Positions 877 to 59,743 of a stretch of 64,000 bases of DNA are shown here, one piece after another. The notes beneath the pieces were generated by a model. That model worked only from the letters and a program-made list of their open reading frames with translations, ran no database searches and was not told the origin of the DNA. This stretch comes from Rhynchopus sp. YZ270_cl-10. Lineage: Eukaryota. The translations under genes were made by a program, and so were the position numbers. Location of the stretch: contig OZ037845.1 of NCBI GenBank assembly GCA_964035575.1, positions 1,488,001 to 1,552,000 on the forward strand, in the 5' to 3' direction. Position 1 is the first letter of the stretch, and every line of letters starts with the position of its first letter.

Positions 877-1528
877 AAGCTCCTTGCACATCTGTTATGC
901 CCACTGCTCCCTCATATCCCATCTCTTTCCCTTCCCCTCTTCCCCGAACGTTAGCACCCTTTTGCTTCCCATTCCACGCAGTTCGAATGTCCAACGAACA
1001 CCCCGAAGGCACCTTCTGCAGAAATGCATGAGTGGCAACGTTGGCGTGACGCACAGTGGTTTCGCATTGTAGGGCAGAAGCGTGCCTTGTAAATTTGTTA
1101 TGTTATGACGGCGCCTGAGAACGCCCCCGACGAGAGAGAGTCTCGCAAACTTGTAAAAAATGTAAAGATAATAAAAAAAAGGGGGGGGGGGGGGGGGAAA
1201 TCCCAGAGTACCAAAGAGGGAGATTACCACACACAAACGAGCCAGTTCACGTCCTCTGTTGTTTGATGCAGCGCAACTATTTTATAGAGAAAATATGTAA
1301 AGAACGAAGGGAAAAGGTTGCGAAGGGGGTCGAACCTGCAACTGTACGCCACTTCTGATGTGTGGATTTAATAAAATTAAAAACTGAGGGACGTTGACAG
1401 CTCGTGCACAAAAAAGACAAAATAGAACAAACCCACCACATTTTGCTTTGATCTGTTGCTCAGTTGCCTTGCCTTCGCTATACACACAGACACACACAGG
1501 CATTTGTATTGTTAGTTGAGGATTAACT

Positions 1529-13532: not shown

Positions 13533-15360
13533 ATGGCTGAGGCAAAGCACGAGCCCCGTGACCACGACTCCTTCCAGGATGACACCCTCCCCGACGACGT
13601 CAAGGTTGTCCCGTCTTTCGACGAGATGCCCCTGCACACCAACCTTCTCCGTGGAATTTACTCCTACGGGTATGTAGTCTTTGCTTCACGTCTTTGCTTC
13701 CTTTCCTGTCACACAAGACTTTTGTAATCATTTCACCCCCACCACAGATTCGAGAAGCCGTCTGCCATCCAGCAGCGTGCGATCATCCCTTTCATCAAGG
13801 GAGGTGACCTGATCGCCCAGGCCCAGTCCGGAACCGGCAAGACCGGAGCCTTCACGATTGGTCTCCTCCAGCGCATGGACTGGACCAACCGTGCCTGCCA
13901 GGGACTTGTCCTCTCGCCCACCCGCGAGCTGGCCACCCAGACCGAGAGCGTGATCTCCTCCATTGGAGAGTACCTCTGTGACGGACCGTTCTGCCACACC
14001 TTCGTGGGTATGTTGCTTGTTTTGTGTTTTATTTTGCGTCTGTTGTTTTGTCTCGTTTGGGTCTGTGATGACATTGAATACACCGCAACGGTCTGACCTG
14101 CTTCTTTGCGATGCTTACAACCGTATTGACGTCCCCTTCATTGGGGGCAACTGAGATCCTCTCACCTGTGTGTTCCCTTTCAACTGTTTCCAGCGCGCCA
14201 TGTGTCCCCTTGCTTCCACATGAGGTACGGGTCAGATAGGATCGCAAGACACCCATCCACACAAAGCTTCACACCACGCAGTAATGATGATATTGTAAAT
14301 ACATCCGCAACGGTCTTGATGAGCCTGTTCGCAGGCGATGGTTAGAACTCTTTCTTCGTATTACACTGACACTCTTCACTCTGTCGTTTCCGTCATTTTT
14401 TTGTGTTTAGTTGTTTGTTTTTGTGACCTGACACTTTTGCACCCTTGTCTTTTCTCACCACAGGAGGAACCCGTGTGACTGACGATCTCGCCAAGCTCCA
14501 GAAGGGAGTTCTGGTGGCTGTCGGAACCCCCGGACGTGTGTTCGACGTTATCAAGCGTGGAGCCCTGAAGACCGACCACCTTAAGGTATGCAAGAAAGCC
14601 CGTTGACGACAACACCAACAACACAGCACACACACGACACACACACACACACAACACACAACACACACAGGTGCTCTGCCTTGACGAGGCTGACGAGATG
14701 CTTTCCCAGGGATTCTCCGAGCAGATCTACGAGATCTTCAAGTTCCTCCCCAAGGAGGTGCAGGTGTGCCTGTTCTCCGCCACCATGCCCCCGGAGGTGC
14801 TGGACCTGACCCAGAAGTTCATGCGTGAGCCCATCCGTATCCTTGTGAAGAAGGAGGCCCTGACCCTTGAGGGAATCAAGCAGTTCTACGTGGCTGTTGA
14901 GGAGGAGTACAAGCTCGAGACCCTCATGGACCTGTACGACTCCGTGTCGATTGCGCAGTCTGTGATCTTCTGCAACACCCGCCGGAAGGTCGACTGGCTG
15001 TCCGAGAAGATGAACGACAAGGAGTTCACCGTGTCGTTCATGCACGCGGACATGCAGAAGGGAGAGCGTGAAAAGGTGATGAAGGTGTTCCGCTCTGGAT
15101 CGTCGCGTGTGCTGATCTCGACCGATCTGCTTGCCCGTGGTATCGACGTGCAGCACGTTTCCATCGTGATCAACTTCGACCTTCCCGCCAACAGAGAGAA
15201 CTACCTTCACCGTATCGGTCGTTCCGGACGTTACGGACGTAAGGGTGTTGCCATCAACTTCGTCAACACCAAGGACGTCCCTCTGCTCAAGGAGCTCCAG
15301 GAGTTCTACAACACCACCATCGAGGAGCTCCCCATGGACTTCGCCTCCCACCTGGAGTAG
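13533..15360 (+). CDS. eIF4A: eIF4A DEAD-box helicase copy F1 (402 aa); exons 13533-13669, 13748-14007, 14464-14585, 14671-15360
   Basis: The spliced frame restores [43 protein letters not shown] and HRIGRSGR; all introns are GTATG...CAG. Confidence 0.97.
14059..14159 (+). ncRNA. Candidate intronic box C/D snoRNA 1 (also in intron 2 of F2-F5)
   Basis: C box GTGATGA 14065-71, D' CTGA 14093-96, C'-like GCGATGC, D box CTGA 14151-54, terminal stem GGGTC/GATCC. The F4 variant keeps the consensus as ATGATGA. Confidence 0.75.
14190..14275 (+). ncRNA. Possible structured small RNA between the two C/D candidates (H/ACA- or AGA-box-like, unresolved)
   Basis: CATGTG/CACATG stem and GGGT/ACCC stem; copied verbatim with snoRNA 2 at 42849 and 43068. 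Box spacing is not convincing. Confidence 0.35.
14280..14373 (+). ncRNA. Candidate intronic box C/D snoRNA 2 (paralog of snoRNA 1)
   Basis: C box ATGATGA 14284-90, D'-like TTGA 14316-19, C'-like GCGATGG, D box CTGA 14366-69; shares CCGCAACGGTC with snoRNA 1. Confidence 0.75.
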
Positions 15361-15719: not shown

Positions 15720-16286
15720 ATGTCTGAGGCAAAGCACGAGCCCCGTGACCACGACTCCTTCCAGTATGACACCCTCCCCGACGTAAATCTTGATGGAATC
15801 AAGCAGTTCTACGTGGATGTTGAGAAGGAGGAGTACAAGCTCGAGACCCTCATGGACCTGTACGACTCCGTGTCGATTGCGCAGTCTGTGATCTTCTGCA
15901 ACACCCGCCGGAAGGTCGACTGGCTGTCCGAGAAGATGAAGGAACGGGAGTTCACCGTGTCCTTCATGCACGCGGACATGCAGAAGGGAGAGCGTGAAGA
16001 TGTGATGAAGGTGTTCCGCTCCGGATCGTCGCGTGTGCTGATCTCCACCGATATGCTTGTCCGTGCTATTGACGTGAAGCAAGTTTCAATCGTGATCAAC
16101 TTCGACCTTCCCGCGATCAGAGAGGACTACCTTCACCGTATCGGTCGTTCCGGACATTACGGACGTAAGGGTGTTGCCATCAACTTTGTGACCACGAAGG
16201 ACGTCCCGCTTCTCAAGGAGCTCCGCGAGTTCTACAACACCACCATCGAGGAGCTCCCAATGGACTTCGCCTCCCACCTGGAGTAG
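15720..16286 (+). CDS. Truncated eIF4A paralog T1: N-terminal peptide fused in frame to the C-terminal RecA domain (188 aa)
   Basis: [21 protein letters not shown] joined to LDGIKQFYV...[11 protein letters not shown]; no introns or internal stops. Confidence 0.75.
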
Positions 16287-17162
16287 TAATCTAAGCAAAC
16301 GGCCACACTACGTGTTGTCAGGCTTCGTATCATCAGCGTATCCACATCTGCCACTAAGCTGACGAAGTCACAACATCCACACCTCCGGGAGGGTTGAACA
16401 CATCTTGATCCTTACGTGTCGCAAGGACGTCAAGGACAAGTGGAACACGCACCGGTGCTCATTGTATTGTCTCTGGACAGCCATTTTATCATGATAGAAC
16501 ATCGGTATTCGGAGAGGTACGCAGGTCCCTGTGTGCACCCCTTAAAAACCTCGGGGAAAACCCCCAAGTACTTTTACTCCTGACCGGAAAAGGTCGGCTG
16601 TGGTTGATCTCACAACCCTTTTTCTTGTTCTTTTCCCCTCGCCATTATCTAGCACAAGGCGCAGCAATAATTTTATGCCGTTTACAAAAGATACGCTATT
16701 GTGCTGCCCCCCTCATGGGCTTCGTTGTTCACGTGGTCTTATGAGAGGCACAGAGCGGCAACACTCTCCCTCTTGCCTTCACTCGTGACTTATAGTCACT
16801 CGGGTTGAAACACCAACTCGGGTGACATATTCACATTCCCCATCCCTTGGTTACCCGATATTAAAAAAGAAGTCTGTGTTCATTCGAGACGTGGTCGATT
16901 TTTTTTTTCTTTGCTTTTTGTTTTTTGCATTTTTTTTTTTTTACTTGAAGTGGTTTCTTAATTGTTGAAAAGCCAGACAACATCACTTGTGTGTCGTTGC
17001 CGTCTTCATTGCATCCTCTTCGTGGTAGCGGTGCATGGAACGGCACAGTACAGTCAGAAAAGATTAACCTGCAACCCTCATTTTTTTGTTCACCTTGTCT
17101 CCCCAACTCCAGTATTCACAACCACTTCACACCAGAGCCAACCAAGTTATCAAAAAGTAATT

Positions 17163-17738
17163 ATGTCTGAGGCAAAGCACGAGCCCCGTGACCACGACTC
17201 CTTCCAGGATGACACCCTCCCCCACGACGTGAGCCTAAATCTGGATCGAGTCAAGCAGTTCTACGTGGATGTTGAGAAGGAGGAGTACAAGCTCGAGACC
17301 CTCATGGACCTGTACGACTCCGTGTCGATTCCGCAGTCCGTGATCTTCTGCAACACCCGCCGGAAAGCCGAGTGGCTGTCCGAGAAGATGAACGACAAGG
17401 AGTTCAGCGTGTCGTTCATGCACGCGGACATGCAGAAGGGAGAGCGTGAAGATGTGATGAAGGCTTTCCGCTCCGGATCGTCACGTGTGCTGATCTCGAC
17501 TGATATGCCTCTCCGTGGTATGGACATGCCGTGCGTTTCCATCGTGATCAATTACGACCTGTCCGCCAACAGAGAGAACTACCTTCACCGTATCGGTCGT
17601 TACGGACGTTACGGACGTAAGAGTTTTGCCATCAACTTTGTCACCACGGAGGACATCCCGCTGCTCAAGGAGCTCCGTGAGTTCTACAACACCACCATCG
17701 AGGAGCTCCCCATGGACTTTGCCTCCGATCTGGAGTAG
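17163..17738 (+). CDS. Truncated eIF4A paralog T2 (CTD only, 191 aa)
   Basis: [35 protein letters not shown]...; motif V region MPLRGMD, motif [10 protein letters not shown]. Confidence 0.75.
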
Positions 17739-18641
17739 TAATCTAAGCAAACGGCCACACTACGTGTTGTCAGGCTTCGTATCATCAGCGTATCCACATC
17801 TGCCGCTAAGCTGACGAAGTCACAACATCCACACCTCCGGGAGGGTTGAACACATCTTGATCCTTACGTGTCGCAAGGACGTCAAGGACAAGTGGAACAC
17901 GCACCGGTGCTCATTGTATTGTCTCTGGACAGCCATTATGGTAAACCGGTATTCGGAGAGGTACGCAGGTCCCTATGTGCACTCCTTAAAAACCTCGGGG
18001 GAAAACCCCGAAGTACTTTTACTCCTCACGGAAAAGGTCGGCTGTGGTTGATCTCACAACCCTTTTTCTTGTTCTTTTCCCCTCGCCATTTTCTAGCACA
18101 AGGCGCAGCATTGTTGTTATTGAGTTTACAAAAGATACGCTATTCTGCTGTCTCCCTCATGGGCTTCGTTGTTCACGTGCTCTTATGAGAGGCACATAGC
18201 GGCAACACTCTCCCTCTTGCCTTCACTCGTGAAGTAAAGTCACTCGGGTTGAAACACCAACTCGGGTGACATATTCACATTCCCCATCCCTTGGTTACCC
18301 GATGTTAAAAAAGAAGTCTGTGTTCATTCCAGACCTGGTCGTTTTTGTTTTGTTTTTGTTTTCATACTTCATAGCCCGCCTGAGTCTATCTTTGCTGGTT
18401 TCCAATAACACTTTAGTGTTGAGGGAAATCGATACAACATGAAAAGAAACAGCAGAACTCTTGATTCGAGTGTCGTTGCCGTCTTCATTGCATCCTCTTC
18501 GTGGTAGCGGTGCATGGAACGGCACAGTACAGTCAGAAAAGATTAACCTCCAACCCTCATTTTTTTGTTCACCTTGTCTCCCCAACTCCAGCATTCACAA
18601 CCATTTCACACCAGAGCCAACCAAGTTATCAAAAAGTAATT

Positions 18642-19172
18642 ATGTCTGAGGCAAAGCACGAGGAGGCCCTGACCCTTGATGGAATAAAGCAGTTCTACGT
18701 GCATGTTGAGGAGGAGTACAAGCTCGAGACCCTCATGGACCTGTACGACTCTGTGTCGATTGCGCAGTCCGTGATCTTCTGCAACACCCGCCGGAAGGTC
18801 GAGTGGTTGTCCGAGAAGATGAAGGAACAGGAGTTCACCTTGTCCTTCATGCACGCAGACATGCAGAAGGGAGAGCGTGAAGATGTGATGAAGGCTTTCC
18901 GCTCTGGATCGTCACGTGTGCTGATCTCGACTGATATGCCTCTCCGTGGTATCAACATGCCGCATTTCGTTTCTATCGTGATCAATTACGACCTGTCCGC
19001 CATCAAAGAGGACTACCTTCACCGTATCGGTCGTTCCGGATGTTACGGACGTAAGGGTGTTGCCATCAACTTCGTCAACACCAAGGACGTCCCGCTGCTC
19101 AAGGAGCTCCGCGAGTTCTACAACACCACCATCGAGGAGCTCCCCATGGACTTCCCCGCCAACCTGTACTAG
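18642..19172 (+). CDS. Truncated eIF4A paralog T3 (CTD only, 176 aa)
   Basis: MSEAKHE joined to [13 protein letters not shown]; open frame; motif [10 protein letters not shown]. Confidence 0.75.
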
Positions 19173-20069
19173 TAATCTAAGCAAACGTCCACACTACGTG
19201 TTGTCAGGCTTCGTATCATCAGCGTATCCACATCTGCCACTAAGCTGACGAAGTCACAACATCCACACCTCCGGGAGGGTTGAACACATCTTGATCCTTA
19301 CGTGTCGCAAGGACGTCAAGGACAAGTGGAACACGCACCGGTGCTCATTGTATCGTCTCTGGACAGCCATTTTCCCGGTGATGGTAAACCGGTATTTGGA
19401 GAGGTACGCAGGTCCCTGTGTGCACCCCTTAAAAACCTCGGCGAAAACCCACTTACTCCTGACCGGAAAAGGTCGGCTGTGGTTGATCTCACAACCCTTT
19501 TTCTTGTTCTTTTCCCCTCGCCATTTTCTAGCACAAGGCGCAGCATTGTTGTTATTGTGTTTACAAAAGATACGCTATTGTGCTGTCCCCCTCATGGGCT
19601 TCGTTGTTCACGTGGTCTTATGAGAGGCACACAGCGGCAACACTCTCCCTCTTGCCTTCACTCGTGAATTAAAGTCACTCGGCTTGAAACACCAACTCGG
19701 GTGACATATTCACATTCCCCATCCCTTGGTTACCCGATGTTAAAAAAGAAGTCTGTGTTCATTCCAGACCTGGTGTTTTTGTGTTCTTTTCATACTTCGT
19801 AGCCCGCCTGAGTCTATCTTTGCTGGTTTCCAATAACACTTTAGTGTTGGGGGAAATCGATACAACAAGAAAAGAAACAGCAGAACTCTTGATTCGAGTG
19901 TCGTTGCCGTCTTCATTGCATCCTCTTCGTGGTAGCGGTGCATGGAACGGCACAGTACAGTCAGAAAAGATTAACCTCCAACCCCCAATTTTTTGTTCAC
20001 CTTGTCTCCCCAACTCCAGTATTCACAACCACTTCACACCAGAGCCAACCAAGTTATCAAAAAGTAATT

Positions 20070-20591
20070 ATGTCTGAGGCAAAGCACGAGGAGGCCCTGA
20101 CCCTTGATGGAATAAAGCAGTTCTACGTGCATGTTGAGGAGGAGTACAAGTTCGAGACCCTCATGGACGTGTACGACTACGTATCGATTCCTCAGTCCGT
20201 GATCTTCTGCAACACCCGCCGGAAGGTCGACTGGCTGTCCGAGAAGATGAACGACAAGGAGTTCACTGTGTCGTTCATGCACGCGAAGGGAGAGCGTGAA
20301 GATGTGATGAAGGCTTTCCGCTCTGGATCGTCACGTGTGCTGATCTCGACTGATATGCCTCTCCGTGGTATCGACATGCCGCATTTCGTTTCTATCGTGA
20401 TCAATTACGACCTGTCCGCCATCAGAGAGGACTACCTTCACCGTATCGGTCGTTCCGGATGTTACGGACGTAAGGGTGTTGCCATCAACTTCGTCACCAC
20501 GGAGGACGTCCCTCTGCTCAAGGAGCTCCAGGAGTTCTACAACACCACCATCGAGGACCTCCCCATGGACTTCGACTCCCACTTGGAGTAG
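20070..20591 (+). CDS. Truncated eIF4A paralog T4 (CTD only, 173 aa)
   Basis: Same junction as T3; in-frame loss of DMQ; open frame. Confidence 0.72.
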
Positions 20592-21378
20592 TAATCTAAG
20601 CAAACGGCCACACTACGTGTTGTCAGGCTTCGTATCATCAGCGTATCCACATCTGCCGCTAAGCTGACGAAGGCACAACATCCACACCTCCGGGAGGGTT
20701 GAACACATCTTGATCCTTACGTGCCACAAGGACGTCAAGGACAAGTGGAACTTTTACTCCTGACCGGAAAAGGTCGGCTGTGGTTGCTCTCACAACCCTT
20801 TTTCTTGTTCTTCCCCCGCCATTATCTAGCACAAGGCGCAGCATTGTTGTTATTGAGTTTACAAAAGATACGCTATTCTGCTGTCCCCCTCATGGGCTTC
20901 GTTGTTCACGTGCTCTTATGAGAGGCACATAGCGGCAACACTCTCCCTCTTGCCTTCACTCGTGAATTAAAGTCACTCGGGTTGAAACACCAACTCGGGT
21001 GACATATTCACATTCCCCATCCCTTGGTTACCCGATGTTAAAAAAGAAGTCTGTGTTCATTCGAGACGTGGTCGATTATTTGCTTTTTGTGTTTCTTTTC
21101 ATCCGTCGTAGCCCGCCTGAGTCTATCTTTGCTGGTTTCCAATAACACTTTAGTGTTGGGGGGAATACACATAACAAGAAAAGAAACAGCAGAACTCTTG
21201 ATTCGAGTGTCGTTGCCGTCTTCATTGCATCCTCTTCGTGGTAGCGGTGCATGGAACGGCACAGTACAGTCAGAAAAGATTAACCTCCAACCCCCAATTT
21301 TTTGTTCACCTTGTCTCCCCAACTCCAGTATTCACAACCACTTCACACCAGAGCCAACCAAGTTATCAAAAAGTAATT

Positions 21379-21900
21379 ATGTCTGAGGCAAAGCACGAGG
21401 AGGCCCTGACCCTTGATGGAATAAAGCAGTTCTACGTGCATGTTGAGGAGGAGTACAAGTTCGAGACCCTCATGGACGTGTACGACTACGTATCGATTCC
21501 TCAGTCCGTGATCTTCTGCAACACCCGCCGGAAGGTCGACTGGCTGTCCGAGAAGATGAACGACAAGGAGTTCACTGTGTCGTTCATGCACGCGAAGGGA
21601 GAGCGTGAAGATGTGATGAAGGCTTTCCGCTCTGGATCGTCACGTGTGCTGATCTCGACTGATATGCCTCTCCGTGGTATCGACATGCCGCATTTCGTTT
21701 CTATCGTGATCAATTACGACCTGTCCGCCATCAGAGAGGACTACCTTCACCGTATCGGTCGTTCCGGATGTTACGGACGTAAGGGTGTTGCCATCAACTT
21801 CGTCACCACGGAGGACGTCCCTCTGCTCAAGGAGCTCCAGGAGTTCTACAACACCACCATCGAGGACCTCCCCATGGACTTCGACTCCCACTTGGAGTAG
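21379..21900 (+). CDS. Truncated eIF4A paralog T5 (same protein as T4)
   Basis: Tandem duplicate of the T4 unit, period 1309 bp. Confidence 0.72.
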
Positions 21901-22687
21901 TAATCTAAGCAAACGGCCACACTACGTGTTGTCAGGCTTCGTATCATCAGCGTATCCACATCTGCCGCTAAGCTGACGAAGGCACAACATCCACACCTCC
22001 GGGAGGGTTGAACACATCTTGATCCTTACGTGCCACAAGGACGTCAAGGACAAGTGGAACTTTTACTCCTGACCGGAAAAGGTCGGCTGTGGTTGCTCTC
22101 ACAACCCTTTTTCTTGTTCTTCCCCCGCCATTATCTAGCACAAGGCGCAGCATTGTTGTTATTGAGTTTACAAAAGATACGCTATTCTGCTGTCCCCCTC
22201 ATGGGCTTCGTTGTTCACGTGCTCTTATGAGAGGCACATAGCGGCAACACTCTCCCTCTTGCCTTCACTCGTGAATTAAAGTCACTCGGGTTGAAACACC
22301 AACTCGGGTGACATATTCACATTCCCCATCCCTTGGTTACCCGATGTTAAAAAAGAAGTCTGTGTTCATTCGAGACGTGGTCGATTATTTGCTTTTTGTG
22401 TTTCTTTTCATCCGTCGTAGCCCGCCTGAGTCTATCTTTGCTGGTTTCCAATAACACTTTAGTGTTGGGGGGAATACACATAACAAGAAAAGACGCAGCA
22501 GAACTCTTGATTCGAGTGTCGTTGCCGTCTTCATTGCATCCTCTTCGTGGTAGCGGTGCATGGAACGGCACAGCACAGTCAGAAAAGATTAACCACCAAC
22601 CCTCATTTTTTTGTTCACCTTGTCTCCCCAACTCCAGTATTCACAACCACTTCACACCAGAGCCAACCAAGTTATCAAAAAGTAATT

Positions 22688-24515
22688 ATGTCTGAGGCAA
22701 AGCACGAGCCCCGTGACCACGACTCCTTCCAGGATGACACCCTCCCCGACGACGTCAAGGTTGTCCCGTCTTTCGACGAGATGCCCCTGCACACCAACCT
22801 TCTCCGTGGAATTTACTCCTACGGGTATGTAGTCTTTGCTTCACGTCTTTGCTTCCTTTCCTGTCACACAAGACTTTTGTAATCATTTCACCCCCACCAC
22901 AGATTCGAGAAGCCGTCTGCCATCCAGCAGCGTGCGATCATCCCTTTCATCAAGGGAGGTGACCTGATCGCCCAGGCCCAGTCCGGAACCGGCAAGACCG
23001 GAGCCTTCACGATTGGTCTCCTCCAGCGCATGGACTGGACCAACCGTGCCTGCCAGGGACTTGTCCTCTCGCCCACCCGCGAGCTGGCCACCCAGACCGA
23101 GAGCGTGATCTCCTCCATTGGAGAGTACCTCTGTGACGGACCGTTCTGCCACACCTTCGTGGGTATGTTGCTTGTTTTGTGTTTTATTTTGCGTCTGTTG
23201 TTTTGTCTCGTTTGGGTCTGTGATGACATTGAATACACCGCAACGGTCTGACCTGCTTCTTTGCGATGCTTACAACCGTATTGACGTCCCCTTCATTGGG
23301 GGCAACTGAGATCCTCTCACCTGTGTGTTCCCTTTCAACTGTTTCCAGCGCGCCATGTGTCCCCTTGCTTCCACATGAGGTACGGGTCAGATAGGATCGC
23401 AAGACACCCATCCACACAAAGCTTCACACCACGCAGTAATGATGATATTGTAAATACATCCGCAACGGTCTTGATGAGCCTGTTCGCAGGCGATGGTTAG
23501 AACTCTTTCTTCGTATTACACTGACACTCTTCACTCTGTCGTTTCCGTCATTTTTTTGTGTTTAGTTGTTTGTTTTTGTGACCTGACACTTTTGCACCCT
23601 TGTCTTTTCTCACCACAGGAGGAACCCGTGTGACTGACGATCTCGCCAAGCTCCAGAAGGGAGTTCTGGTGGCTGTCGGAACCCCCGGACGTGTGTTCGA
23701 CGTTATCAAGCGTGGAGCCCTGAAGACCGACCACCTTAAGGTATGCAAGAAAGCCCGTTGACGACAACACCAACAACACAGCACACACACGACACACACA
23801 CACACACAACACACAACACACACAGGTGCTCTGCCTTGACGAGGCTGACGAGATGCTTTCCCAGGGATTCTCCGAGCAGATCTACGAGATCTTCAAGTTC
23901 CTCCCCAAGGAGGTGCAGGTGTGCCTGTTCTCCGCCACCATGCCCCCGGAGGTGCTGGACCTGACCCAGAAGTTCATGCGTGAGCCCATCCGTATCCTTG
24001 TGAAGAAGGAGGCCCTGACCCTTGAGGGAATCAAGCAGTTCTACGTGGCTGTTGAGGAGGAGTACAAGCTCGAGACCCTCATGGACCTGTACGACTCCGT
24101 GTCGATTGCGCAGTCTGTGATCTTCTGCAACACCCGCCGGAAGGTCGACTGGCTGTCCGAGAAGATGAACGACAAGGAGTTCACCGTGTCGTTCATGCAC
24201 GCGGACATGCAGAAGGGAGAGCGTGAAAAGGTGATGAAGGTGTTCCGCTCTGGATCGTCGCGTGTGCTGATCTCGACCGATCTGCTTGCCCGTGGTATCG
24301 ACGTGCAGCACGTTTCCATCGTGATCAACTTCGACCTTCCCGCCAACAGAGAGAACTACCTTCACCGTATCGGTCGTTCCGGACGTTACGGACGTAAGGG
24401 TGTTGCCATCAACTTCGTCAACACCAAGGACGTCCCTCTGCTCAAGGAGCTCCAGGAGTTCTACAACACCACCATCGAGGAGCTCCCCATGGACTTCGCC
24501 TCCCACCTGGAGTAG
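22688..24515 (+). CDS. eIF4A: eIF4A copy F2; introns 22825-22902, 23163-23618, 23741-23825
   Basis: Same exon/intron lengths as F1 at offset 9155; starts MSEAK rather than MAEAK. Confidence 0.96.
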
Positions 24516-25762
24516 AATCCGGATTGTTTTGTTTCTCAAGAATGCATGTACTCGCATCGTCCTGCAGGAAGAGGAGGGAGCGAGAGTGAAGACTACCCGT
24601 TTGTTTTTATGTTGTTGTTCTTTTTGTTGGTTGAGAGAGTTCCACTCTGTGTGGGAGGGATGGTTTTGTTTGTTGCTGATGATGTTATTTTATAGCTTTG
24701 TTTTTTCCCCCTATTTTTCACCCTTTTTTTTGACATTCCTTGGGAAACCCGCGCCGAGCACTTAAGTGGAAAGAAACTTTCATATTCATTCTAAACAACA
24801 CGCAAATTAACATAACCATTACCACTTTTTTTAATAAAAAGAGCACAAATTCCCTTTACGGTAAACCACTGTCTTCTGGCAGCTAGTTTCAGGAATGTTT
24901 CAAAGAAGGAGGAAATTGTGAAAAAAGACAAGAACATAATGGATGAGCAACATTCAGAAAAGAAGTTGTGAGGTTTTTTCTTTCTTCCGTTCCCGCTATT
25001 TTTTTTTTTTTTTTTTTTTTTGGTGTTGTTCTGCTGATGATATTATTTTATAGCTTTGTTTTCCCCCTATTTTTCACCCCTTTTTTTGACATTCCTTGGG
25101 AAACCCGCGCCAAGCACTTAAGTGGACACAAACTTTCATATTTATTTTAAACAACACGCAAATTAACATAACCATTCCCACTCAAGAAAATAAAAGGTCA
25201 CAAATTCCCTTCACGGGAGACCACTGTCTTCTGGCAGCCAGTTTCAGGAATGTTTTAAATATTTTCCCCTCGCCATTATCTAGCACAAGGCGCAGAAATA
25301 TTTTTTCCAGTTTACAAAAGATACGCTATTCTGCTGTCCCCCTCATGGGCTTCGTTGTTCACGTGCTCTTATGAGAGGCACATAGCGGCAACACTCTCCC
25401 TCTTGCCTTCACTCGTGACTTAAAGTCATTCGGGTTGAAACACCAACTCGGGTGACATATTCACATTCCCCATCCCTTTGTTACCCGATGTTAAAAAAGA
25501 AGTCTGTGTTCATTCGAGACCTGGTCGATTAGTTGCTTTTTGTTTTTTTGCATTTTTTTACTTAGCGTTTTCTTCATTGTTGAAAAGCCAGACAACACCA
25601 CTTGATCTCTGCAACAGCATTTCTCTGCGAAGGCGTGCTTAAGGTATCAAACCCATTGGCAAGTGAGGGAATTCAGGATAAAGTACCAGTTGCAGTGATC
25701 TCGTTGGTGGCTCTATCTTTGCTGGTTTCCAATAACACTTTAGTGTTGAGGTGATACACATA

Positions 25763-26800
25763 CCCTCACAGTAAAAATAATGTTTTTTCAAAAATAAATT
25801 AATAAAAAAATGACCCAAAAGTAACATTTTTTTTGTAACAATTTAATAAAATGTTTTATTCGTTTTTTTGCAGTTGGGCAAAAAGTAACAAATGTTACAA
25901 CGTGGTGTGTTCCGGGGTATGGGATTTTACACATCTTCACACATCTTCACAACTCTTCACAACTTTTCACAAATTTTCACAAATTTTCACAACATAATTT
26001 TGGCCATATTTTTGTGAAGAATTGTGAAGAGTTGTGAATAGTTGTGAAAAGTTGTGAAGAGTTGTGAATTGAAATGAAAATTTGGATGAAAAAAACACAG
26101 ACGTTGTGAATATTTGTGAAGAGTTGTGAACAGTTGTGAAGAGATGTGAAGAGTTGTGAATTGGGAAAACCCCCCCTTTTTTTCTCCAATTCACAACTCT
26201 TCACAACTGTTCACAACTCTTCACAAATATTCACAACGTCTGTGTTTTTTTCATCCAAATTTTCATTTCAATTCACAACTCTTCACAACTTTTCACAACT
26301 ATTCACAACTCTTCACAATTCTTCACAAAAATATGGCCAAAATTATGTTGTGAAAAATTGTGAAAAGTTGTGAAGAGTTGTGAAGATGTGTGAAGATGTG
26401 TAAAATCCCATACCCCGGAACACACCACAACGAAAAAATAAAAAGCCCATGGTTGAAGCACGGGAGTACCATAGGGAACTGGGTTGCTGACCACACCATC
26501 CAGGCTGTACCTCAATTTTTTTTTTGCCTGCGGCGCCATTTTCCCTTTTTTGCTCCGCAAAAAAGGGTTCGTAGAGTGACTCTGTGTAAAAAGCTAGATT
26601 TTTACACCATGGGTTTCCGCGCTGTATGCTTTATTAGCCCCCCCAGTAACATTTTTGTTACGCCTGCGGCGTAACAAAATGTTACAAAAAAATAAAATCC
26701 AAAAAATGAAAAAAGTAACAAAATGCAAAAATGTTATAAAAAAAATAAAAATCGCCGAAATAATTTATTTGTAACAATAACATAATTTATACTATGAGGG
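25763..26800. mobile_element. Tc1/mariner-type MITE inserted in the eIF4A spacer
   Basis: TIR CCCTCACAGTA / TACTATGAGGG with TA on both sides; the empty site ATACACATAACAAGAAA is present in the spacers at ~21166, ~22475 and ~32275. Confidence 0.8.
25903..26427. mobile_element. Foldback (near-perfect palindromic) element nested in the MITE
   Basis: ~260-bp inverted arms starting TGGTGTGTTCCGGGGTATGGG; CAACG duplicated at 25898-25902 and 26428-26432; arms built from TTCACAACTC-type decamers. Confidence 0.85.
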
Positions 26801-27007
26801 TAACAAGAAAAGAAACAGCAGAACTCTTGATTCGAGTGTCGTTGCCGTCTTCATTGCATCCTCTTCGTGGTAGCGGTGCATGGAACGGCACAGTACAGTC
26901 AGAAAAGATTAACCTCCAACCCCCAATTTTTTGTTCACCTTGTCTCCCCAACTCCAGTATTCACAACCACTTCACACCAGAGCCAACCAAGTTATCAAAA
27001 AGTAATT

Positions 27008-27535
27008 ATGTCTGAGGCAAAGCACGAGGAGGCCCTGACCCTTGATGGAATCAAGCAGTTCTACGTGGCTGTTGAGGAGGAGTACAAGTTCGAGACCCTC
27101 ATGGACCTGTACGACTACGTATCGATTCCTCAGTCCGTGATCTTCTGCAACACCCGCCGGAAGGTCGAGTTGCTGTCTGAGAAGATGAACGACAAGGAGT
27201 TCAGCGTGTCGTTCATGCACGCGGACATGCAGAAGGGAGAGCGTGAAGATGTGATGAAGGCTTTCCGCTATGGATCGTCACGTGTGCTGATCTCGACTGA
27301 TATGCCTCACCGTGGTATCAACATGCCGCGCATTTCCATCGTGATCAACTACGACCTGTCCGCCATCAAAGAGGACTACCTTGACCGTATCGGTCGTTCC
27401 GGCCGTTACGGACGTAAGAGTGTTGCCATCAACTTTGTGACCACGAAGGACGTCCCTCTGCTCAAGGAGCTCCGCGAGTTCTACAACACCACCATCGAGG
27501 AGCTCCCCATGGACTTCGCCTCCCACTTGGAGTAG
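27008..27535 (+). CDS. Truncated eIF4A paralog T6 (CTD only, 175 aa)
   Basis: [12 protein letters not shown] junction; MPHRGIN and DRIGRSGR substitutions; open frame. Confidence 0.73.
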
Positions 27536-28458
27536 TAATCTAAGCAAACGGCCACACTACGTGTTGTCAGGCTTCGTATCATCAGCGTATCCACATCTGC
27601 CGCTAAGCTGACGAAGTCACAACATCCACACCTCCGGGAGGGTTGAACACATCTTGATCCTTAAGTGTCGCAAGGACGTCAAGAACAAGTGGAACACGCA
27701 CCGGTGCTCTTTGTATCGTCTCTGGACAGCCATTTCCCGTGATGGTAAACCGGTATTTGGAGAGGTACGCAGGTCCCTGTGTGCACCCCTTAAAAACCTC
27801 GGGGAAAACCCCCAAGTACTTTTACTCCTGACCGGAAAAGGTCGGCTGTGGTTGATCTCACAACCCTTTTTCTTGTTCTTTTCCCCTCGCCGTTATCTAG
27901 CACAAGGCACAGAAATAATTTTATGCAGTTCACAAAAGATACGCTATTCTGCTGTCCCCCTCATGGGCTTCGTTGTTCACGTGGTCTTATGAGAGGCACA
28001 GAGCGGCAACACTCTCCCTCTTGCCTTCACTCGTGACTTAAAGTCACTCGGGTTGAAACACCAACTCGGGTGACATATTCACATTCCCCATCCCTTGGTT
28101 ACCCGATGGTAAAAAAGAAGTCTGTGTTCATTCGAGACCTGGTCGTTGTTGTTTTTGTTTTCTTACTTCGGCGGCTCCGGCTACTTCGTAGCCCGCCTGA
28201 GTCTATCTTTGCTGGTTGCCAATAACACTTTAGTGTTGAGGGGAATACAAATAACAAGAAAAGAAACAGAAGAACTCTTGATTCGAGTGTCGTTGCCGTC
28301 TTCATTGCATCCTCTTCGTGGTAGCGGTGCATGGAACGGCACAGCACAGTCAGAAAAGATTAACCTCCAACCCTTATTTTTTTGTTCACCTTGTCTCCCC
28401 AACTCCAGTATTCACAACCACTTCACACCAGAGCCAACCAAGTTATCAAAAAGTAATT

Positions 28459-30252
28459 ATGTCTGAGGCAAAGCACGAGCCCCGTGACCACGACTCCTTC
28501 CAGGATGACACCCTCCCCGACGACGTCAAGGTTGTCCCGTCTTTCGACGAGATGCCCCTGCACACCAACCTTCTCCGTGGAATTTACTCCTACGGGTATG
28601 TAGTCTTTGCTTCACGTCTTTGCTTCCTTTCCTGTCACACAACACTTTTGTAATCATTTCACCCCCACCACAGATTCGAGAAGCCGTCTGCCATCCAGCA
28701 GCGTGCGATCATCCCTTTCATCAAGGGAGGTGACCTGATCGCCCAGGCCCAGTCCGGAACCGGCAAGACCGGAGCCTTCACGATTGGTCTCCTCCAGCGC
28801 ATGGACTGGACCAACCGTGCCTGCCAGGGACTTGTCCTCTCGCCCACCCGCGAGCTGGCCACCCAGACCGAGAGCGTGATCTCCTCCATTGGAGAGTACC
28901 TCTGTGACGGACCGTTCTGCCACACCTTCGTGGGTATGTTGCTTGTTTTGTGTTTTATTTTGCGTCTGTTGTTTTGTCTCGTTTGGGTCTGTGATGACAT
29001 TGAATACACCGCAACGGTCTGACCTGCTTCTTTGCGATGCTTACAACCGTATTGACGTCCCCTTCATTGGGGGCAACTGAGATCCTCTCACCTGTGTGTT
29101 CCCTTTCAACTGCTTCCAGCGCGCCATGTGTCCCCTTGCTTCCACATGAGGTACGGGTCAGATAGGATCGCAAGACACCCATCCACACAAAGCTTCACAC
29201 CACGCAGTAATGATGATATTGTAAATACATCCGCAACGGTCTTGATGAGCCTGTTCGCAGGCGATGGTTAGAACTCTTTCTTCGTATTACACTGACACTC
29301 TTCACTCTGTCGTTTCCGTCATTTTTTTGTGTTTAGTTGTTTGTTTTTGTGACCTGACACTTTTGCACCCTTGTCTTTTCTCACCACAGGAGGAACCCGT
29401 GTGACTGACGATCTCGCCAAGCTCCAGAAGGGAGTTTTGGTGGCTGTCGGAACCCCCGGACGTGTGTTCGACGTTATCAAGCGTGGAGCCCTGAAGACCG
29501 ACCACCTTAAGGTATGCAAGAAAGCCCGTTGACGACAACAACAACACTCACAACACACACAGGTGCTCTGCCTTGACGAGGCTGACGAGATGCTTTCCCA
29601 GGGATTCTCCGAGCAGATCTACGAGATCTTCAAGTTCCTCCCCAAGGAGGTGCAGGTGTGCCTGTTCTCCGCCACCATGCCCCCGGAGGTGCTGGACCTG
29701 ACCCAGAAGTTCATGCGTGAGCCCATCCGTATCCTTGTGAAGAAGGAGGCCCTGACCCTTGAGGGAATCAAGCAGTTCTACGTGGCTGTTGAGGAGGAGT
29801 ACAAGCTCGAGACCCTCATGGACCTGTACGACTCCGTGTCGATTGCGCAGTCTGTGATCTTCTGCAACACCCGCCGGAAGGTCGACTGGCTGTCCGAGAA
29901 GATGAACGACAAGGAGTTCACCGTGTCGTTCATGCACGCGGACATGCAGAAGGGAGAGCGTGAAAAGGTGATGAAGGTGTTCCGCTCTGGATCGTCGCGT
30001 GTGCTGATCTCGACCGATCTGCTTGCCCGTGGTATCGACGTGCAGCACGTTTCCATCGTGATCAACTTCGACCTTCCCGCCAACAGAGAGAACTACCTTC
30101 ACCGTATCGGTCGTTCCGGACGTTACGGACGTAAGGGTGTTGCCATCAACTTCGTCAACACCAAGGACGTCCCTCTGCTCAAGGAGCTCCAGGAGTTCTA
30201 CAACACCACCATCGAGGAGCTCCCCATGGACTTCGCCTCCCACCTGGAGTAG
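28459..30252 (+). CDS. eIF4A: eIF4A copy F3; introns 28596-28673, 28934-29389, 29512-29562
   Basis: Same exons as F1/F2; intron 3 shortened to 51 nt. Confidence 0.96.
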
Positions 30253-31720: not shown

Positions 31721-32488
31721 TTTTTCCCCCACCATTTTTTTTTTTTTTTGACGTTCCTTGGGAAACCCGCGCCGAGCACTAAAGTGGACACAAACTTTCA
31801 TATTCATTCTTAACAGCACGCAAATTAACATAACCATTTCCACTCAAGAAAAAAAAAGTGCGCAAATTCCCTTTCACGGGATACCACTGTCTTCTGGCAG
31901 CAAGTTTCAGGAATGTTTTAAATAATTTCCCCTCGCCATTATCTAGCACAAGGCGCAGCATTGTTGTTATTCAGTTTACAAAGATACGCTATTCTGCTGT
32001 CCCCCTCACGGGCTTCGTTGTTCACGTGCTCTTATGAGAGGCACATAGCGGCAACACTCTCCCTCTTGCCTTCACTCGTGACTTAAAGTCACTCGGGTTG
32101 AAACACCAACTCGGGTGACATATTCACATTCCCCATCCCTTGGTTACCCGATGTTAAAAAAGAAGTCTGTGTTCATTCGAGACCTGGTCGTTTTTGTTTT
32201 TGTGTTTCTTTTCATACATTGTACGCCTGAGTCTATCTTTGCTGGTTTCCAATTACACTTTAGTGTTGGGGGGAATACACATAACAAGAAAAGACGCAGC
32301 AGAACTCTTGATTCGAGTGTCGTTGCCGTCTTCATTGCATCCTCTTCGTGGTAGCGGTGCATGGAACGGCACAGCACAGTCAGAAAAGATTAACCACCAA
32401 CCCTCATTTTTTTGTTCACCTTGTCTCCCCAACTCCAGCATTCACAACCACTTCACACCAGAGCCAACCAAGTTATCAAAAAGTAATT

Positions 32489-34316
32489 ATGTCTGAGGCA
32501 AAGCACGAGCCCCGTGACCACGACTCCTTCCAGGATGACACCCTCCCCGACGACGTCAAGGTTGTCCCGTCCTTCGACGAGATGCCCCTGCACACCAACC
32601 TTCTCCGTGGAATTTACTCCTACGGGTATGTAGTCTTTGCTTCACGTCTTTGCTTCCTTTCCTGCCACACAACACTTTTGTAATCATTTCACCCCCACCA
32701 CAGATTCGAGAAGCCGTCTGCCATCCAGCAGCGTGCGATCATCCCTTTCATCAAGGGAGGTGACCTGATCGCCCAGGCCCAGTCCGGAACCGGCAAGACC
32801 GGAGCCTTCACGATTGGTCTCCTCCAGCGCATGGACTGGACCAACCGTGCCTGCCAGGGACTTGTCCTCTCGCCCACCCGCGAGCTGGCCACCCAGACCG
32901 AGAGCGTGATCTCCTCCATTGGAGAGTACCTCTGTGACGGACCGTTCTGCCACACCTTCGTGGGTATGTTGCTTGTTTTGTGTTTTATTTTGCGTCTGTT
33001 GTTTTATCTTGTTTGGGTCAATGATGACATTGAATACACCGCAACGGTCTGACCTGCTTCTTTGCGATGCTTACAACCGTATTGACGTCCCCTTCATTGG
33101 GGGCAACTGAGATCCTCTCACCTGTGTGTTCCCTTTCAACTGTTTCCAGCGCGCCATGTGTCCCCTTGCTTCCACATGAGGTACGGGTCAGATAGGATCG
33201 CAAGACACCCATCCACACAAAGCTTCACACCACGCAGTAATGATGATATTGTAAATACATCCGCAACGGTCTTGATGAGCCTGTTCGCAGGCGATGGTTA
33301 GAACTCTTTCTTCGTATTACACTGACACTCTTCACTCTGTCGTTTCCGTCATTTTTTTGTGTTTAGTTGTTTGTTTTTGTGACCTGACACTTTTGCACCC
33401 TTGTCTTTTCTCACCACAGGAGGAACCCGTGTGACTGACGATCTCGCCAAGCTCCAGAAGGGAGTTCTGGTGGCTGTCGGAACCCCCGGACGTGTGTTCG
33501 ACGTTATCAAGCGTGGAGCCCTGAAGACCGACCACCTTAAGGTATGCAAGAAAGCCCGTTGACGACAACACCAACAACACAGCACACACACGACACACAC
33601 ACACACACAACACACAACACACACAGGTGCTCTGCCTTGACGAGGCTGACGAGATGCTTTCCCAGGGATTCTCCGAGCAGATCTACGAGATCTTCAAGTT
33701 CCTCCCCAAGGAGGTGCAGGTGTGCCTGTTCTCCGCCACCATGCCCCCGGAGGTGCTGGACCTGACCCAGAAGTTCATGCGTGAGCCCATCCGTATCCTT
33801 GTGAAGAAGGAGGCCCTGACCCTTGAGGGAATCAAGCAGTTCTACGTGGCTGTTGAGGAGGAGTACAAGCTCGAGACCCTCATGGACCTGTACGACTCCG
33901 TGTCGATTGCGCAGTCTGTGATCTTCTGCAACACCCGCCGGAAGGTCGACTGGCTGTCCGAGAAGATGAACGACAAGGAGTTCACCGTGTCGTTCATGCA
34001 CGCGGACATGCAGAAGGGAGAGCGTGAAAAGGTGATGAAGGTGTTCCGCTCTGGATCGTCGCGTGTGCTGATCTCGACCGATCTGCTTGCCCGTGGTATC
34101 GACGTGCAGCACGTTTCCATCGTGATCAACTTCGACCTTCCCGCCAACAGAGAGAACTACCTTCACCGTATCGGTCGTTCCGGACGTTACGGACGTAAGG
34201 GTGTTGCCATCAACTTCGTCAACACCAAGGACGTCCCTCTGCTCAAGGAGCTCCAGGAGTTCTACAACACCACCATCGAGGAGCTCCCCATGGACTTCGC
34301 CTCCCACCTGGAGTAG
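32489..34316 (+). CDS. eIF4A: eIF4A copy F4; introns 32626-32703, 32964-33419, 33542-33626
   Basis: Same structure as F1 at offset 18956. Confidence 0.96.
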
Positions 34317-38081: not shown

Positions 38082-39065
38082 ATGGCAGAGCAAAGTGCCT
38101 TGGAGCGGGCCCTGCCGTGCTTGAGGGGTGGGGGAGATGTGGTCGTCGTGACCCCAGCTGCGCCTGCGTCTGCCTGCATCGCGCCTGTATTGGAGCTCAT
38201 AGAGGAGGGTACCGTGCGGACTGTGCTTCTTGTTGTGAACGACCCTGAGTCGTACATCAATGCAGTGCGCAACGTGAACATCTCCATCGACACTACAGAC
38301 ACAGACACAGACACACCACAGGTTCTAGTCGGCACTCCGCACCAGCTTCTTATGAGGGAGGATTTCCCTGTAGATATGGTGTACATCTGTGCGTACGGCT
38401 TTGATGCGGCGCGCTATGAAGCGGCTGTGGTGTTGGTCAAAACGCTTGCGTTGCAGGTGTGTGTCATCGCGCCTGCGGTGTGTACGTTGCTTACGAAGGT
38501 GGAGGCAGCGTGCAACCACCCGGTACGCATTGTGGTGAGGGAGCGCGTTGAAACGGCGTGCGACTTTACGCAGTTCTACATTGCAGTGGAGGAGGCGTTC
38601 AAGGTCGAGACGCTGTTCGACCTATACGACAGTGTCTCCATCATACGCTCTGTCATTCTCTGTCAATGCCGCACCACAGCAGACTCCCTGCGGCAGCAGA
38701 TGGTCTCCGTAGGCCACAACGTAGGTGTGCTGCACGGAAACTCCTCTGAGCAAGACATAGTGTCCACGGTAAGAGACTTCTGTACAGGGAGCATCCGGGT
38801 CATGATCCTCACGCTTGACGATATACTAAAGAACGTAGGGAAAGACATTAGCCACCATCGCTGGCTCGCAATTTTTTACAGTGTACCCGCGCAGAGCGAA
38901 CACTATATCCACAACTTCTGCTCCAGACGCCGCTACGGCCACATGCACGACGTGATATACTTCTTCAGTGCAGCAGAAACAGGCATGCTCCTAGAGATGA
39001 ACGCATACTACAGAGACGCCATCCACGAGCTGCCCATGGATCTCTCAGCAGCCCTAACGCATTAG
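38082..39065 (+). CDS. Highly divergent intronless eIF4A-like protein, predicted catalytically inactive (327 aa)
   Basis: Colinear with eIF4A ([49 protein letters not shown]) but lacks the GKT, DEAD, SAT and HRIGR motifs. Confidence 0.85.
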   Translation: MAEQSALERALPCLRGGGDVVVVTPAAPASACIAPVLELIEEGTVRTVLLVVNDPESYINAVRNVNISIDTTDTDTDTPQVLVGTPHQLLMREDFPVDMVYICAYGFDAARYEAAVVLVKTLALQVCVIAPAVCTLLTKVEAACNHPVRIVVRERVETACDFTQFYIAVEEAFKVETLFDLYDSVSIIRSVILCQCRTTADSLRQQMVSVGHNVGVLHGNSSEQDIVSTVRDFCTGSIRVMILTLDDILKNVGKDISHHRWLAIFYSVPAQSEHYIHNFCSRRRYGHMHDVIYFFSAAETGMLLEMNAYYRDAIHELPMDLSAALTH

Positions 39066-39237: not shown

Positions 39238-41053
39238 ATGGCTGAGGCAAAGCACGAGCCCCGTGACCACGACTCCTTCCAGGATGACACCCTCCCCGAC
39301 GACGTCAAGGTTGTCCCGTCTTTCGACGAGATGCCCCTGCACACCAACCTTCTCCGTGGAATTTACTCCTACGGGTATGCAGTCTTTGCTTCCTTTCCTG
39401 TCACACAACACTTTTGTAATCATTTCACCCCCACCACAGATTCGAGAAGCCGTCTGCCATCCAGCAGCGCGCGATCATCCCTTTCATCAAGGGAGGTGAC
39501 CTGATCGCCCAGGCCCAGTCCGGAACCGGCAAGACCGGAGCCTTCACGATTGGTCTCCTCCAGCGCATGGACTGGACCAACCGTGCCTGCCAGGGACTTG
39601 TCCTCTCGCCCACCCGCGAGCTGGCCACCCAGACCGAGAGCGTGATCTCCTCCATTGGAGAGTACCTCTGTGACGGACCGTTCTGCCACACCTTCGTGGG
39701 TATGTTGCTTGTTTTGTGTTTTATTTTGCGTCTGTTGTTTTGTCTCGTTTGGGTCTGTGATGACATTGAATACACCGCAACGGTCTGACCTGCTTCTTTG
39801 CGATGCTTACAACCGTATTGACGTCCCCTTCATTGGGGGCAACTGAGATCCTCTCACCTGTGTGTTCCCTTTCAACTGCTTCCAGCGCGCCATGTGTCCC
39901 CTTGCTTCCACATGAGGTACGGGTCAGATAGGATCGCAAGACACCCATCCACACACAAAGCTTCACACCACGCAGTAATGATGATATTGTAAATACATCC
40001 GCAACGGTCTTGATGAGCCTGTTCGCAGGCGATGGTTAGAACTCTTTCTTCGTATTACACTGACACTCTTCACTCTGTCGTTACCGTCATTTTTTGTGTT
40101 TTGTTGTTTGTTTTTGTGACCTGACACTTTTTCACCCTTGTCTTTTCTCACCACAGGAGGAACCCGTGTGACTGACGATCTCGCCAAGCTCCAGAAGGGA
40201 GTTCTGGTGGCTGTCGGAACCCCCGGACGTGTGTTCGACGTTATCAAACGTGGAGCCCTGAAGACCGATCACCTTAAGGTATGCAAGAAAGCCCGTTGAC
40301 GACAACACCAACAACACAGCACACACACGACACACACACACACACAACACACAACACACACAGGTGCTCTGCCTTGACGAGGCTGACGAGATGCTTTCCC
40401 AGGGATTCTCCGAGCAGATCTACGAGATCTTCAAGTTCCTCCCCAAGGAGGTGCAGGTGTGCCTGTTCTCCGCCACCATGCCCCCGGAGGTGCTGGACCT
40501 GACCCAGAAGTTCATGCGTGAGCCCATCCGTATCCTTGTGAAGAAGGAGGCCCTGACCCTTGAGGGAATCAAGCAGTTCTACGTGGCTGTTGAGGAGGAG
40601 TACAAGCTCGAGACCCTCATGGACCTGTACGACTCCGTGTCGATTGCGCAGTCTGTGATCTTCTGCAACACCCGCCGGAAGGTCGACTGGCTGTCCGAGA
40701 AGATGAACGACAAGGAGTTCACCGTGTCGTTCATGCACGCGGACATGCAGAAGGGAGAGCGTGAAAAGGTGATGAAGGTGTTCCGCTCTGGATCGTCGCG
40801 TGTGCTGATCTCGACCGATCTGCTTGCCCGTGGTATCGACGTGCAGCACGTTTCCATCGTGATCAACTTCGACCTTCCCGCCAACAGAGAGAACTACCTT
40901 CACCGTATCGGTCGTTCCGGACGTTACGGACGTAAGGGTGTTGCCATCAACTTCGTCAACACCAAGGACGTCCCTCTGCTCAAGGAGCTCCAGGAGTTCT
41001 ACAACACCACCATCGAGGAGCTCCCCATGGACTTCGCCTCCCACTTGGAGTAG
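39238..41053 (+). CDS. eIF4A: eIF4A copy F5; introns 39375-39439, 39700-40156, 40279-40363
   Basis: Same exons as F1 (MAEAK start), with a distinct 5' flank. Confidence 0.96.
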
Positions 41054-43031: not shown

Positions 43032-43067
43032 CATGCAACGGTGATCAACAGGAATACTTCGCACCAC

Positions 43068-53725: not shown

Positions 53726-53733
53726 ATGACCTA

Positions 53734-59699: not shown

Positions 59700-59743
<44 letters not shown>

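Follow-up and report, generated by a model that had tools for sequence, protein, structure and literature searches.

The DNA analysed here (the window) is a stretch of 64,000 nt from Rhynchopus sp. YZ270_cl-10, contig OZ037845.1, positions 1,488,001-1,552,000, and all coordinates below are window positions. It carries a tandem array of eIF4A genes in which full-length copies (F) stand together with half genes (T) that encode only the C-terminal domain (CTD), and with one very diverged, intronless copy (D). Along the forward strand the order is F1, T1, T2, T3, T4, T5, F2, T6, F3, F4, D, F5, i.e. five full genes, six half genes and D. Residues are numbered as in the full gene F; for the CTD the human number is F + 5, as taken from the alignment ranges.

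The reading frames of all six T copies are open, and in each of them the start peptide of F is fused in frame to the inter-domain linker, followed by the whole C-terminal RecA domain, as the first-pass annotation had described. T1 (15720..16286, 188 aa) has a long-leader junction and carries G330A, Q334K, R360H and an extra codon (+K); contigs of the sequencing runs X1 and X2 (see below) show 0 differences from it over 15982-16145. T2 (17163..17738, 191 aa) shares this junction and +K, with Q334P and S358Y. The other copies have a different junction (HE-EALT): T3 (18642..19172, 176 aa) with D332N, Q334P, R360C and the extra codon +F, T4 (20070..20591, 173 aa) with S264Y, A268P, R360C, +F and the loss of three codons (-DMQ), T5 (21379..21900, 173 aa), and T6 (27008..27535, 175 aa) with S264Y, A268P, D332N and H353D. 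T5 is the product of a recent 1309-nt tandem duplication, its unit differing from that of T4 at 2 sites and its coding sequence not at all. Consequently, the six paralogs claimed initially are six intact genes, but they encode five distinct proteins. In a Pfam scan of three of the six copies (T1, T3, T6) Helicase_C was the sole domain.

The full genes F1 (13533..15360), F2 (22688..24515), F3 (28459..30252), F4 (32489..34316) and F5 (39238..41053) encode an eIF4AI-like protein of 402 aa with three GT-AG introns; in run X10, spliced contigs of relatives lack intron 1. Their coding sequences differ pairwise at 1-6 of 1209 nt and are thus homogenised to ≤0.5%, whereas the half genes are 7-9% diverged (~91-93% DNA identity to the active parent F). 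A 172-nt upstream block (e.g. 18470..18641 before T3) with a pyrimidine tract and AG, likely a trans-splice acceptor judging by its sequence, is common to all six T copies and F2-F4 with 0-6 differences; F2 also shares the start peptide with the T copies. Each T copy is followed by a T-type downstream block, a candidate 3' UTR (e.g. 19173..19897 after T3), whose first ~280-340 nt are found behind T copies only.

Alignment with F defines two in-frame junction types, in agreement with the at least two that had been proposed. In T3-T6, E7 is joined to E235, so that F residues 8-234 and ~1.3 kb of genomic DNA are gone; the deletion ends have a 2-letter overlap, which bears out the suggested microhomology. 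T1 and T2 keep ~22 start residues, and T1 equals T2 minus a further 9 nt. In both types the sequence picks up again in the linker, no more than about two codons from E235, the human domains spanning residues 21-236 and 247-406 (PMC8960835). The loss of the N-terminal ATPase domain and of all three introns was thus correctly noted, but the missing introns are uninformative about retroposition because they lie within the deleted segment, and for the same reason the T copies are products of DNA deletion. A processed (retro) pseudogene was rejected: the introns disappeared together with ~227 exon codons, and the genomic upstream block was retained. A deletion within the tandem array fused the start peptide to the linker, and the truncated product was amplified and reshuffled among the copies; the long-leader and HE-EALT types may go back to two deletions or to one deletion followed by a second in-frame trimming.

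Deletion of the N-terminal RecA domain removed motifs Q, I, II (DEAD) and III from every T copy. Furthermore, each copy is changed at at least one of the motif V/VI residues G330, D332, H353, S358 and R360, and all are changed at A328 and Q334, the latter being proline in 5 of 6. Evidently, the two features of an active DEAD-box helicase, an N-terminal domain and intact motifs V and VI, are both missing. The lesions of the ATP/inter-domain face vary from copy to copy (R360H, R360C, H353D, S358Y, G330A, D332N), as is expected once the N-terminal domain is gone. All quoted motif V/VI strings and the whole-codon indels +K, +F and -DMQ of the first-pass annotation were recovered by alignment. RNA-binding parts are less protected as well, as seen from -DMQ in T4/T5 and from R306S in a further copy on another contig (P0400, see below), and radical changes hit the invariant residues L327 (L327P) and P345 (P345S).

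The eIF4G face, which we define by four residues from secondary sources, presents a different picture. In a modelled human complex the CTD contacts eIF4G via D265, E268, D296 and T298 (PMC7470955), corresponding to D260, D263, E291 and T293 of F. All 6 distinct T proteins (P0400 included) retain the three acids, and T293S occurs in T2 and T6. Residues 257-278 are unchanged in T1 and T3, whereas A268P is found in T2, T4/T5 and T6 and S264Y in T4-T6. The statement that ETLMD.YD and the C-terminal tail are largely kept needs correction: some copies carry L261V, S264Y or A268P in the eIF4G-side helix, and the tail of T3 is altered. For T3 a RecA2 fold was predicted: out of five models the top one reached a pLDDT of 78.8 (the remaining four 71-52) and a TM score of 0.85 to the human eIF4A1 CTD, with low confidence at the motif V and VI loops.

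Selection was analysed on 160 CTD codons of the five distinct T copies against F. In a tree with five outgroups the T clade is sister to F (support 100/97) and the F branch has a length of ~0, which places the changes in T. The 91 distinct changes comprise 32.5 synonymous and 58.5 replacement changes and 0 stops, an outcome with a neutral probability of 0.006-0.13 depending on the mutation model. All 6 coding indel or junction events are in frame, whereas over the initial 600 columns of the flanks 3 of 8 indels are (Fisher p = 0.03), and 0 frameshifts stand against 4.4 expected at the flank rate (P = 0.012). Under the maximum-likelihood codon model M0 omega is 0.26-0.48 (p < 4e-4 against 1), and a two-class model fits far better, with ~60% of the sites fixed (omega 0) and ~40% neutral. 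When the counts are stratified by base, the 0-fold/4-fold ratio comes to 0.58 for the whole domain (p = 0.03); it drops to 0.37 with codons 326-366 excluded (p = 0.001) and rises to about 1.2-1.4 within them. Taking the tests as a whole, the nonsynonymous/synonymous ratio lies near 0.4 outside motifs V-VI and near 1.2-1.6 within these motifs. As the initial description held, amino-acid changes cluster in motifs V and VI: 15 fall in codons 326-335 (shuffle p = 0.002), while synonymous changes show no such clustering (p = 0.86). Likewise, among sites conserved in ≥90% of 116 homologues, 14 of the 31 that lie around motifs V-VI are changed, against 8 of the other 53 (p = 0.004). An added class of positively selected sites brought no gain (M2a vs M1a, p = 0.49-1.0; low power with five sequences). 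The label of a diversifying family was accordingly dropped, and the cluster is read as release from constraint on the ATP/inter-domain face. Taken together, it is likely that the T proteins are, or recently were, under selection, which is probably purifying.

In the flanks of the T copies (16287-28286) divergence amounts to 0.08 per site, which is lower than at the 4-fold (0.31, ~4x) and 0-fold sites (0.14) of the coding parts. Gene conversion that homogenises the flanks but not the coding parts would do this, and so would constraint on the UTRs. An Rfam search of 12000-44000 returned no RNA family at the curated threshold, and therefore known non-coding RNA does not account for the conserved flank; seven weak matches to miRNA models sit on a repeat element. 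At 25902-26428 there is a nested inverted repeat, probably MITE-like by its structure, with 215-nt arms that are 97% complementary and TTCACAAC-like units, within a ~1-kb AT-rich insertion upstream of T6. Pieces of the T-type downstream block also lie behind F2 (25262-25525) and F3 (31926-32316) with no T gene preceding them; they are possibly scars of lost T copies or shared spacer.

The T copies are real and present beyond the assembly. For the segment 13400-16880 (F1 and T1), contigs of 4 of 17 listed sequencing runs were compared, T2-T6 being represented by ≥85% likeness to the F1/T1 region only. T features were present in contigs of X1, X2 and X6, runs of the studies P1, P2 and P4, one of which may be the source sample, and the introns were covered in X1 and X2. 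The HE-EALT joint occurs in contigs of X1 and X6, with matching loose ends in X2; +F was found in X1 and X6 and the 9-nt insert of T2 in X2. The junction is thus seen in three studies, and an assembly error can be dismissed. The contig depths in X1 were 114 for the single-copy flank, 129 for T1, 382 for +F, 420 for the junction and ~604 for F, which fits ~1:1:3:4:5 as in the assembled copy numbers, although contig depth does not measure copy number and the source sample may be among the runs. The region is repetitive and T4 and T5 are almost identical, as would suit an artefact; with the junction, +F and the T2 insert found between them in runs of the three studies, we regard an artefact as extremely improbable. 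At 42820-43250 a ~200-nt piece of eIF4A intron 2 is present twice, almost unchanged; its very high depth in X1 makes a dispersed repeat likely.

Hints at expression come from run X10, which is RNA by our guess, no run being on record as RNA. Its depth is zero in three intron 2 bins (14102-14452) that are among the deepest bins in X1. One contig, 472 nt of exon 4, differs from F at 2 positions and has a depth of 70.8; another, 350 nt from a T-type downstream block, has a depth of 4.6. The latter shows 17 differences and 1 gap to T1, the same count as between T1 and T6. It points, if weakly, to transcription behind T6, which could also be read-through. T transcripts would be trans-spliced through the upstream block common with F2-F4, and their expression would be controlled by their own 3' UTR. 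The closest fetched relatives of F, transcript-like contigs with 90% (L001) and 84% (L004) identity, share a leader-like motif at their 5' ends, which we take to be the euglenozoan spliced leader. Such a leader in combination with introns would suit a diplonemid.

A seventh intact T-type protein, P0400, is encoded on another contig (1.31 Mb) with the HE-EALT junction. It differs from T6 at 16 residues, has the ancestral E240 and has lost the RNA-binding arginine R306 (R306S); it comes from a protein collection, which shows open frames only. Among the 120 of 2828 matches listed in a search with T3, those outside the window were mostly short-contig fragments of ordinary eIF4A, and neither these 120 matches nor 57 fetched loci included a T-type relative in other diplonemid-like sequences. 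A 28-mer of the T downstream block gave 0 matches in metagenome_contigs, and a search of viral_contigs found one full-length viral eIF4A and no half gene. Leaving aside the partial loci L055-L057, one of the 57 loci (L040) has a complete CTD-only frame in long flanks: a 212-aa frame at 4899-5537 (+) of a 31-kb contig from an alveolate-like organism, a kinship taken from Symbiodinium (63%), the sole species-named match among 120 listed. Its match begins at the linker, motifs V and VI are broken, the three acids are kept and the fourth contact is changed from T to S; within the 10.5 kb examined no N-terminal domain was detectable, and changes were not enriched in motifs V-VI (p = 0.58). Furthermore, eight CTD-only, motif-degenerate eIF4A-like proteins (P0214 and P0391-P0397) on contigs of 0.9-3.7 kb form a cluster in which changes are enriched in motifs V-VI (10/31 vs 6/53, p = 0.02). 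These are leads, and each may turn out to be a pseudogene or a wrongly called exon. A similar form in two unrelated eukaryote sequence sets suggests that CTD-only, motif-broken eIF4A may recur. That eukaryotes repeatedly evolved an eIF4A 'microprotein', an isolated CTD whose ATP motifs are dead and whose eIF4G face is preserved and which would as an inbuilt competitor switch off or re-target particular eIF4F complexes, and that the array family (at least 7 genes), L040 and the P0214 cluster are independent inventions of this so far undescribed class of translation regulator, we hold to be doubtful. In a 753-aa nematode protein model (P0196) an eIF4A CTD stands at the end, possibly by gene-model fusion.

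D (38082..39065, 327 aa), directly upstream of F5, is a diverged derivative of eIF4A with 39% identity to the CTD of F. It has no DEAD or V/VI motifs but keeps ETLFDLYDSVS, the ELPMD tail, D260/D263 and codon-position bias (GC3 0.68). No Pfam match was obtained, and two protein searches (1.84 billion representatives) found no close homologue. Structure prediction yielded two lobes (pLDDT 82.4, ~350 columns aligned to eIF4A) with eIF4A-I as the best Foldseek match. According to this model, D is an older two-lobed pseudohelicase, in which both RecA lobes remain and the catalytic motifs are lost.

Our preferred reading, to which we assign a probability of roughly 45%, is that the T copies would be translated, selected and enzyme-dead CTD proteins competing with full-length eIF4A for eIF4G. 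Of the three eIF4G sites of eIF4A, two lie in the CTD (PMC9177959), which accounts for most of the eIF4A-eIF4G interaction (PMC12063893), and in mammalian assays both helicase activity and eIF4G binding are needed for the role of eIF4A in translation (PMC2216682). A folded CTD with the eIF4G face and without the motor would therefore occupy eIF4G unproductively. In the proposed mechanism, T proteins of 20-22 kDa, with decayed ATP/inter-domain residues in motifs V-VI and with the frame and the D260/D263/E291 contacts kept, would attach to the MIF4G domain of eIF4G, where they would occupy two of the three contact sites but bring no ATPase or helicase activity. Occupied eIF4G would damp cap-dependent initiation or re-direct it between eIF4G paralogues, probably under particular conditions and not globally. 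Because site 1 is missing from the half protein and codon use in T is departing from that of F, the damper is more likely to be conditional or paralogue-specific than to shut off initiation globally. Of the eIF4G-sequestering inhibitors suggested at the outset, the maintained frames, the kept contact acids and the lost ATP/inter-domain residues stood up, while the diversification did not.

Several results weigh against eIF4G competition. The four contact residues count for little, as 104 of 160 sites are unchanged anyway, and L261V, S264Y and A268P adjoin them. None of the listed contigs of X10, the one RNA-like run, contains a T junction, and synonymous T changes run 17:5 from G/C to A/T, which hints at expression below that of F, whereas a competitor must be abundant. 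The indel test yields p = 0.075 without the first junction. Outside the motifs conserved and variable sites do not differ significantly (p = 0.18), and the replacements in T show no significant excess of conservative ones over random expectation (p = 0.16). Private alleles are as frequent at replacement sites (21/319) as in the flank (34/586; p = 0.66), so that replacement sites evolve no slower. The whole-domain counting test loses significance if G/C to A/T mutation is 2-4x faster, although the flanks show little such bias, and the 326-366 window was picked after inspection of the data. The T copies are mosaic (47% incompatible site pairs; PHI-like test 0/10000 permutations), which violates the tree-based tests, and a 113-nt tract is identical between T1 and F. 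Finally, ATPase-dead full-length EIF4AI slows T. brucei by only ~15% (PMC12063893).

Many of the same observations would suit young or recently relaxed pseudogenes, in which a single truncation was spread by unequal crossing-over and stirred by gene conversion, and whose open frames and low ratios would be due to chance, GC-biased mutation and conversion by the full-length copies. Such copies would be expected to show what the flank yardstick shows, namely a divergence equal to that of the replacement sites, as well as a mosaic structure, L327P and P345S at invariant residues, and a significance that depends on the mutation model; the missing T-type relative among the listed matches and fetched loci points the same way. 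Nevertheless, no copy is disabled by a stop or frameshift, exactly as first described, and no broken copy appeared among the BLAST matches of the window. Omega is below 1 in most tests, the exceptions being the comparison with the flanks and the assumption of a strong mutation bias, and the base-stratified test is still significant. The damage is concentrated where the loss of the N-terminal domain predicts it, the breakpoints lie in the linker, and the same indels are found in runs of other studies. On balance we consider the pseudogene explanation rather unlikely.

If the T proteins function, they need not inhibit. They might be helicase-free docking pieces of an eIF4F-like complex or serve another partner of the CTD, for instance eIF3, via its pocket near the mRNA entry site, or a different protein with a MIF4G domain. 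Trypanosomatids have five eIF4Gs, not all of which form complexes with EIF4AI (PMC12063893), a second eIF4A docks on eIF3 via its CTD (PMC10948362), and S264Y, A268P and T293S beside the eIF4G face could shift the choice of partner. However, the requirement for helicase activity in translation (PMC2216682) makes occupancy of eIF4G without helicase most simply inhibitory, and a docking role is judged unlikely. Conflict decoys, i.e. expendable proteins that vary at the attacked surface and draw off a viral eIF4G, a bacterial effector or a natural product directed against eIF4A, seem very unlikely. Their appeal lies in the multiple copies, in giant viruses (Klosneuvirinae included) that encode eIF4G homologues (bioRxiv 10.1101/2025.09.30.678621), and in the most variable patch, 326-335, which shares positions with both the BLF1 loop (human 337-340) and residues 338-339, on which hippuristanol sensitivity depends. 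Yet human Q339, the target of BLF1 and part of the hippuristanol-sensitivity site, corresponds to the Q334 lost in all T copies, the proline of 5 of 6 being the engineered hippuristanol-resistance substitution (PMC2216682); the T copies would thus be poor baits for both. BLF1, moreover, contacts both eIF4A domains (PMC8960835), positive selection was not detected (within the low power of five sequences), and the five full genes show no escape variation. The toxin-decoy branch of the first-pass annotation is weakened by the lost Q339 equivalent and by the two-domain contact of BLF1.

Outside the eIF4A array, the window begins with tandem ammonium-transporter (Rh-like) genes (1-6275, +), comprising a Pfam match at 1529-2908, a near-identical partial copy preceding it and a diverged paralogue at 4800-6275. 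Downstream follow a SAM-dependent methyltransferase (43410-44402, +), a membrane-anchored protein kinase (47470-50409, +) and two short-tandem-repeat arrays (52034-54349, units ~8-9 nt), which yield long spurious open reading frames. A retroelement with overlapping long open reading frames and an RVT_1 match occupies 55347-59826 (-); a 504-aa frame has tyrosine-recombinase-like residues by eye, and the element is presumably of the DIRS/Ngaro type.

Control of eIF4F is exerted by 4E-BPs on eIF4E and by PDCD4 on eIF4A. If eIF4G competition by the T proteins is true, a gene-encoded eIF4A half that plugs eIF4G would be a further route. Such a regulator would be plausible since trypanosomes, to which this organism is related, regulate genes mostly post-transcriptionally (PMC6597758) and have several eIF4F-like complexes (PMC12063893). 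With full genes, half genes and the old pseudohelicase D side by side, the array may also capture the birth of new genes from an essential housekeeping gene; if the T copies are silent, it is a tidy case of array decay.

In comparison with known systems, the T proteins share the fold of the eIF4AI C-terminal RecA domain (PDB 1fuk, 9i9f/9i9g; 2vso with eIF4G), the TM score of the T3 model having been obtained against 9i9g. Their boundaries nearly equal those of laboratory CTD constructs, and the eIF4G-contact acids are kept; the structures, however, are of engineered fragments, whereas T is a natural multigene family with decayed motifs V-VI. The dominant-negative eIF4A mutants DQAD and PRRVAA (PMC12063893, PMC7470955) and Leishmania LieIF in yeast (PMC5790279) are non-productive eIF4A engaging eIF4F, as proposed for T, but they are full-length and engineered or heterologous, while T lacks the N-terminal domain and its eIF4G site 1. 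Utp25-type pseudohelicases (PMC9539457) are helicase-derived, have lost the catalytic motifs and likely have a binding role, and D fits them best. In contrast to Utp25, the T proteins have one domain, remain close to an active parent and sit in the array of that parent. Mimivirus vIF4F (bioRxiv 10.1101/2025.09.30.678621) offers a viral comparison, whereas the T family is cellular and multicopy, keeps the whole domain and stands next to active genes. No natural CTD-only eIF4A family was found in the literature searched, with most subscription papers and supplements lying outside its coverage. MicroProteins and other single-domain dominant-negative paralogues such as Id and LITTLE ZIPPER keep the interaction domain of a larger protein, and T, by its sequence, is likewise a small paralogue with a single interaction domain. 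Known microProteins mostly target transcription factors, whereas T derives from eIF4A and resembles a truncated dominant-negative paralogue, whose presumed action would be to inhibit the parent complex.

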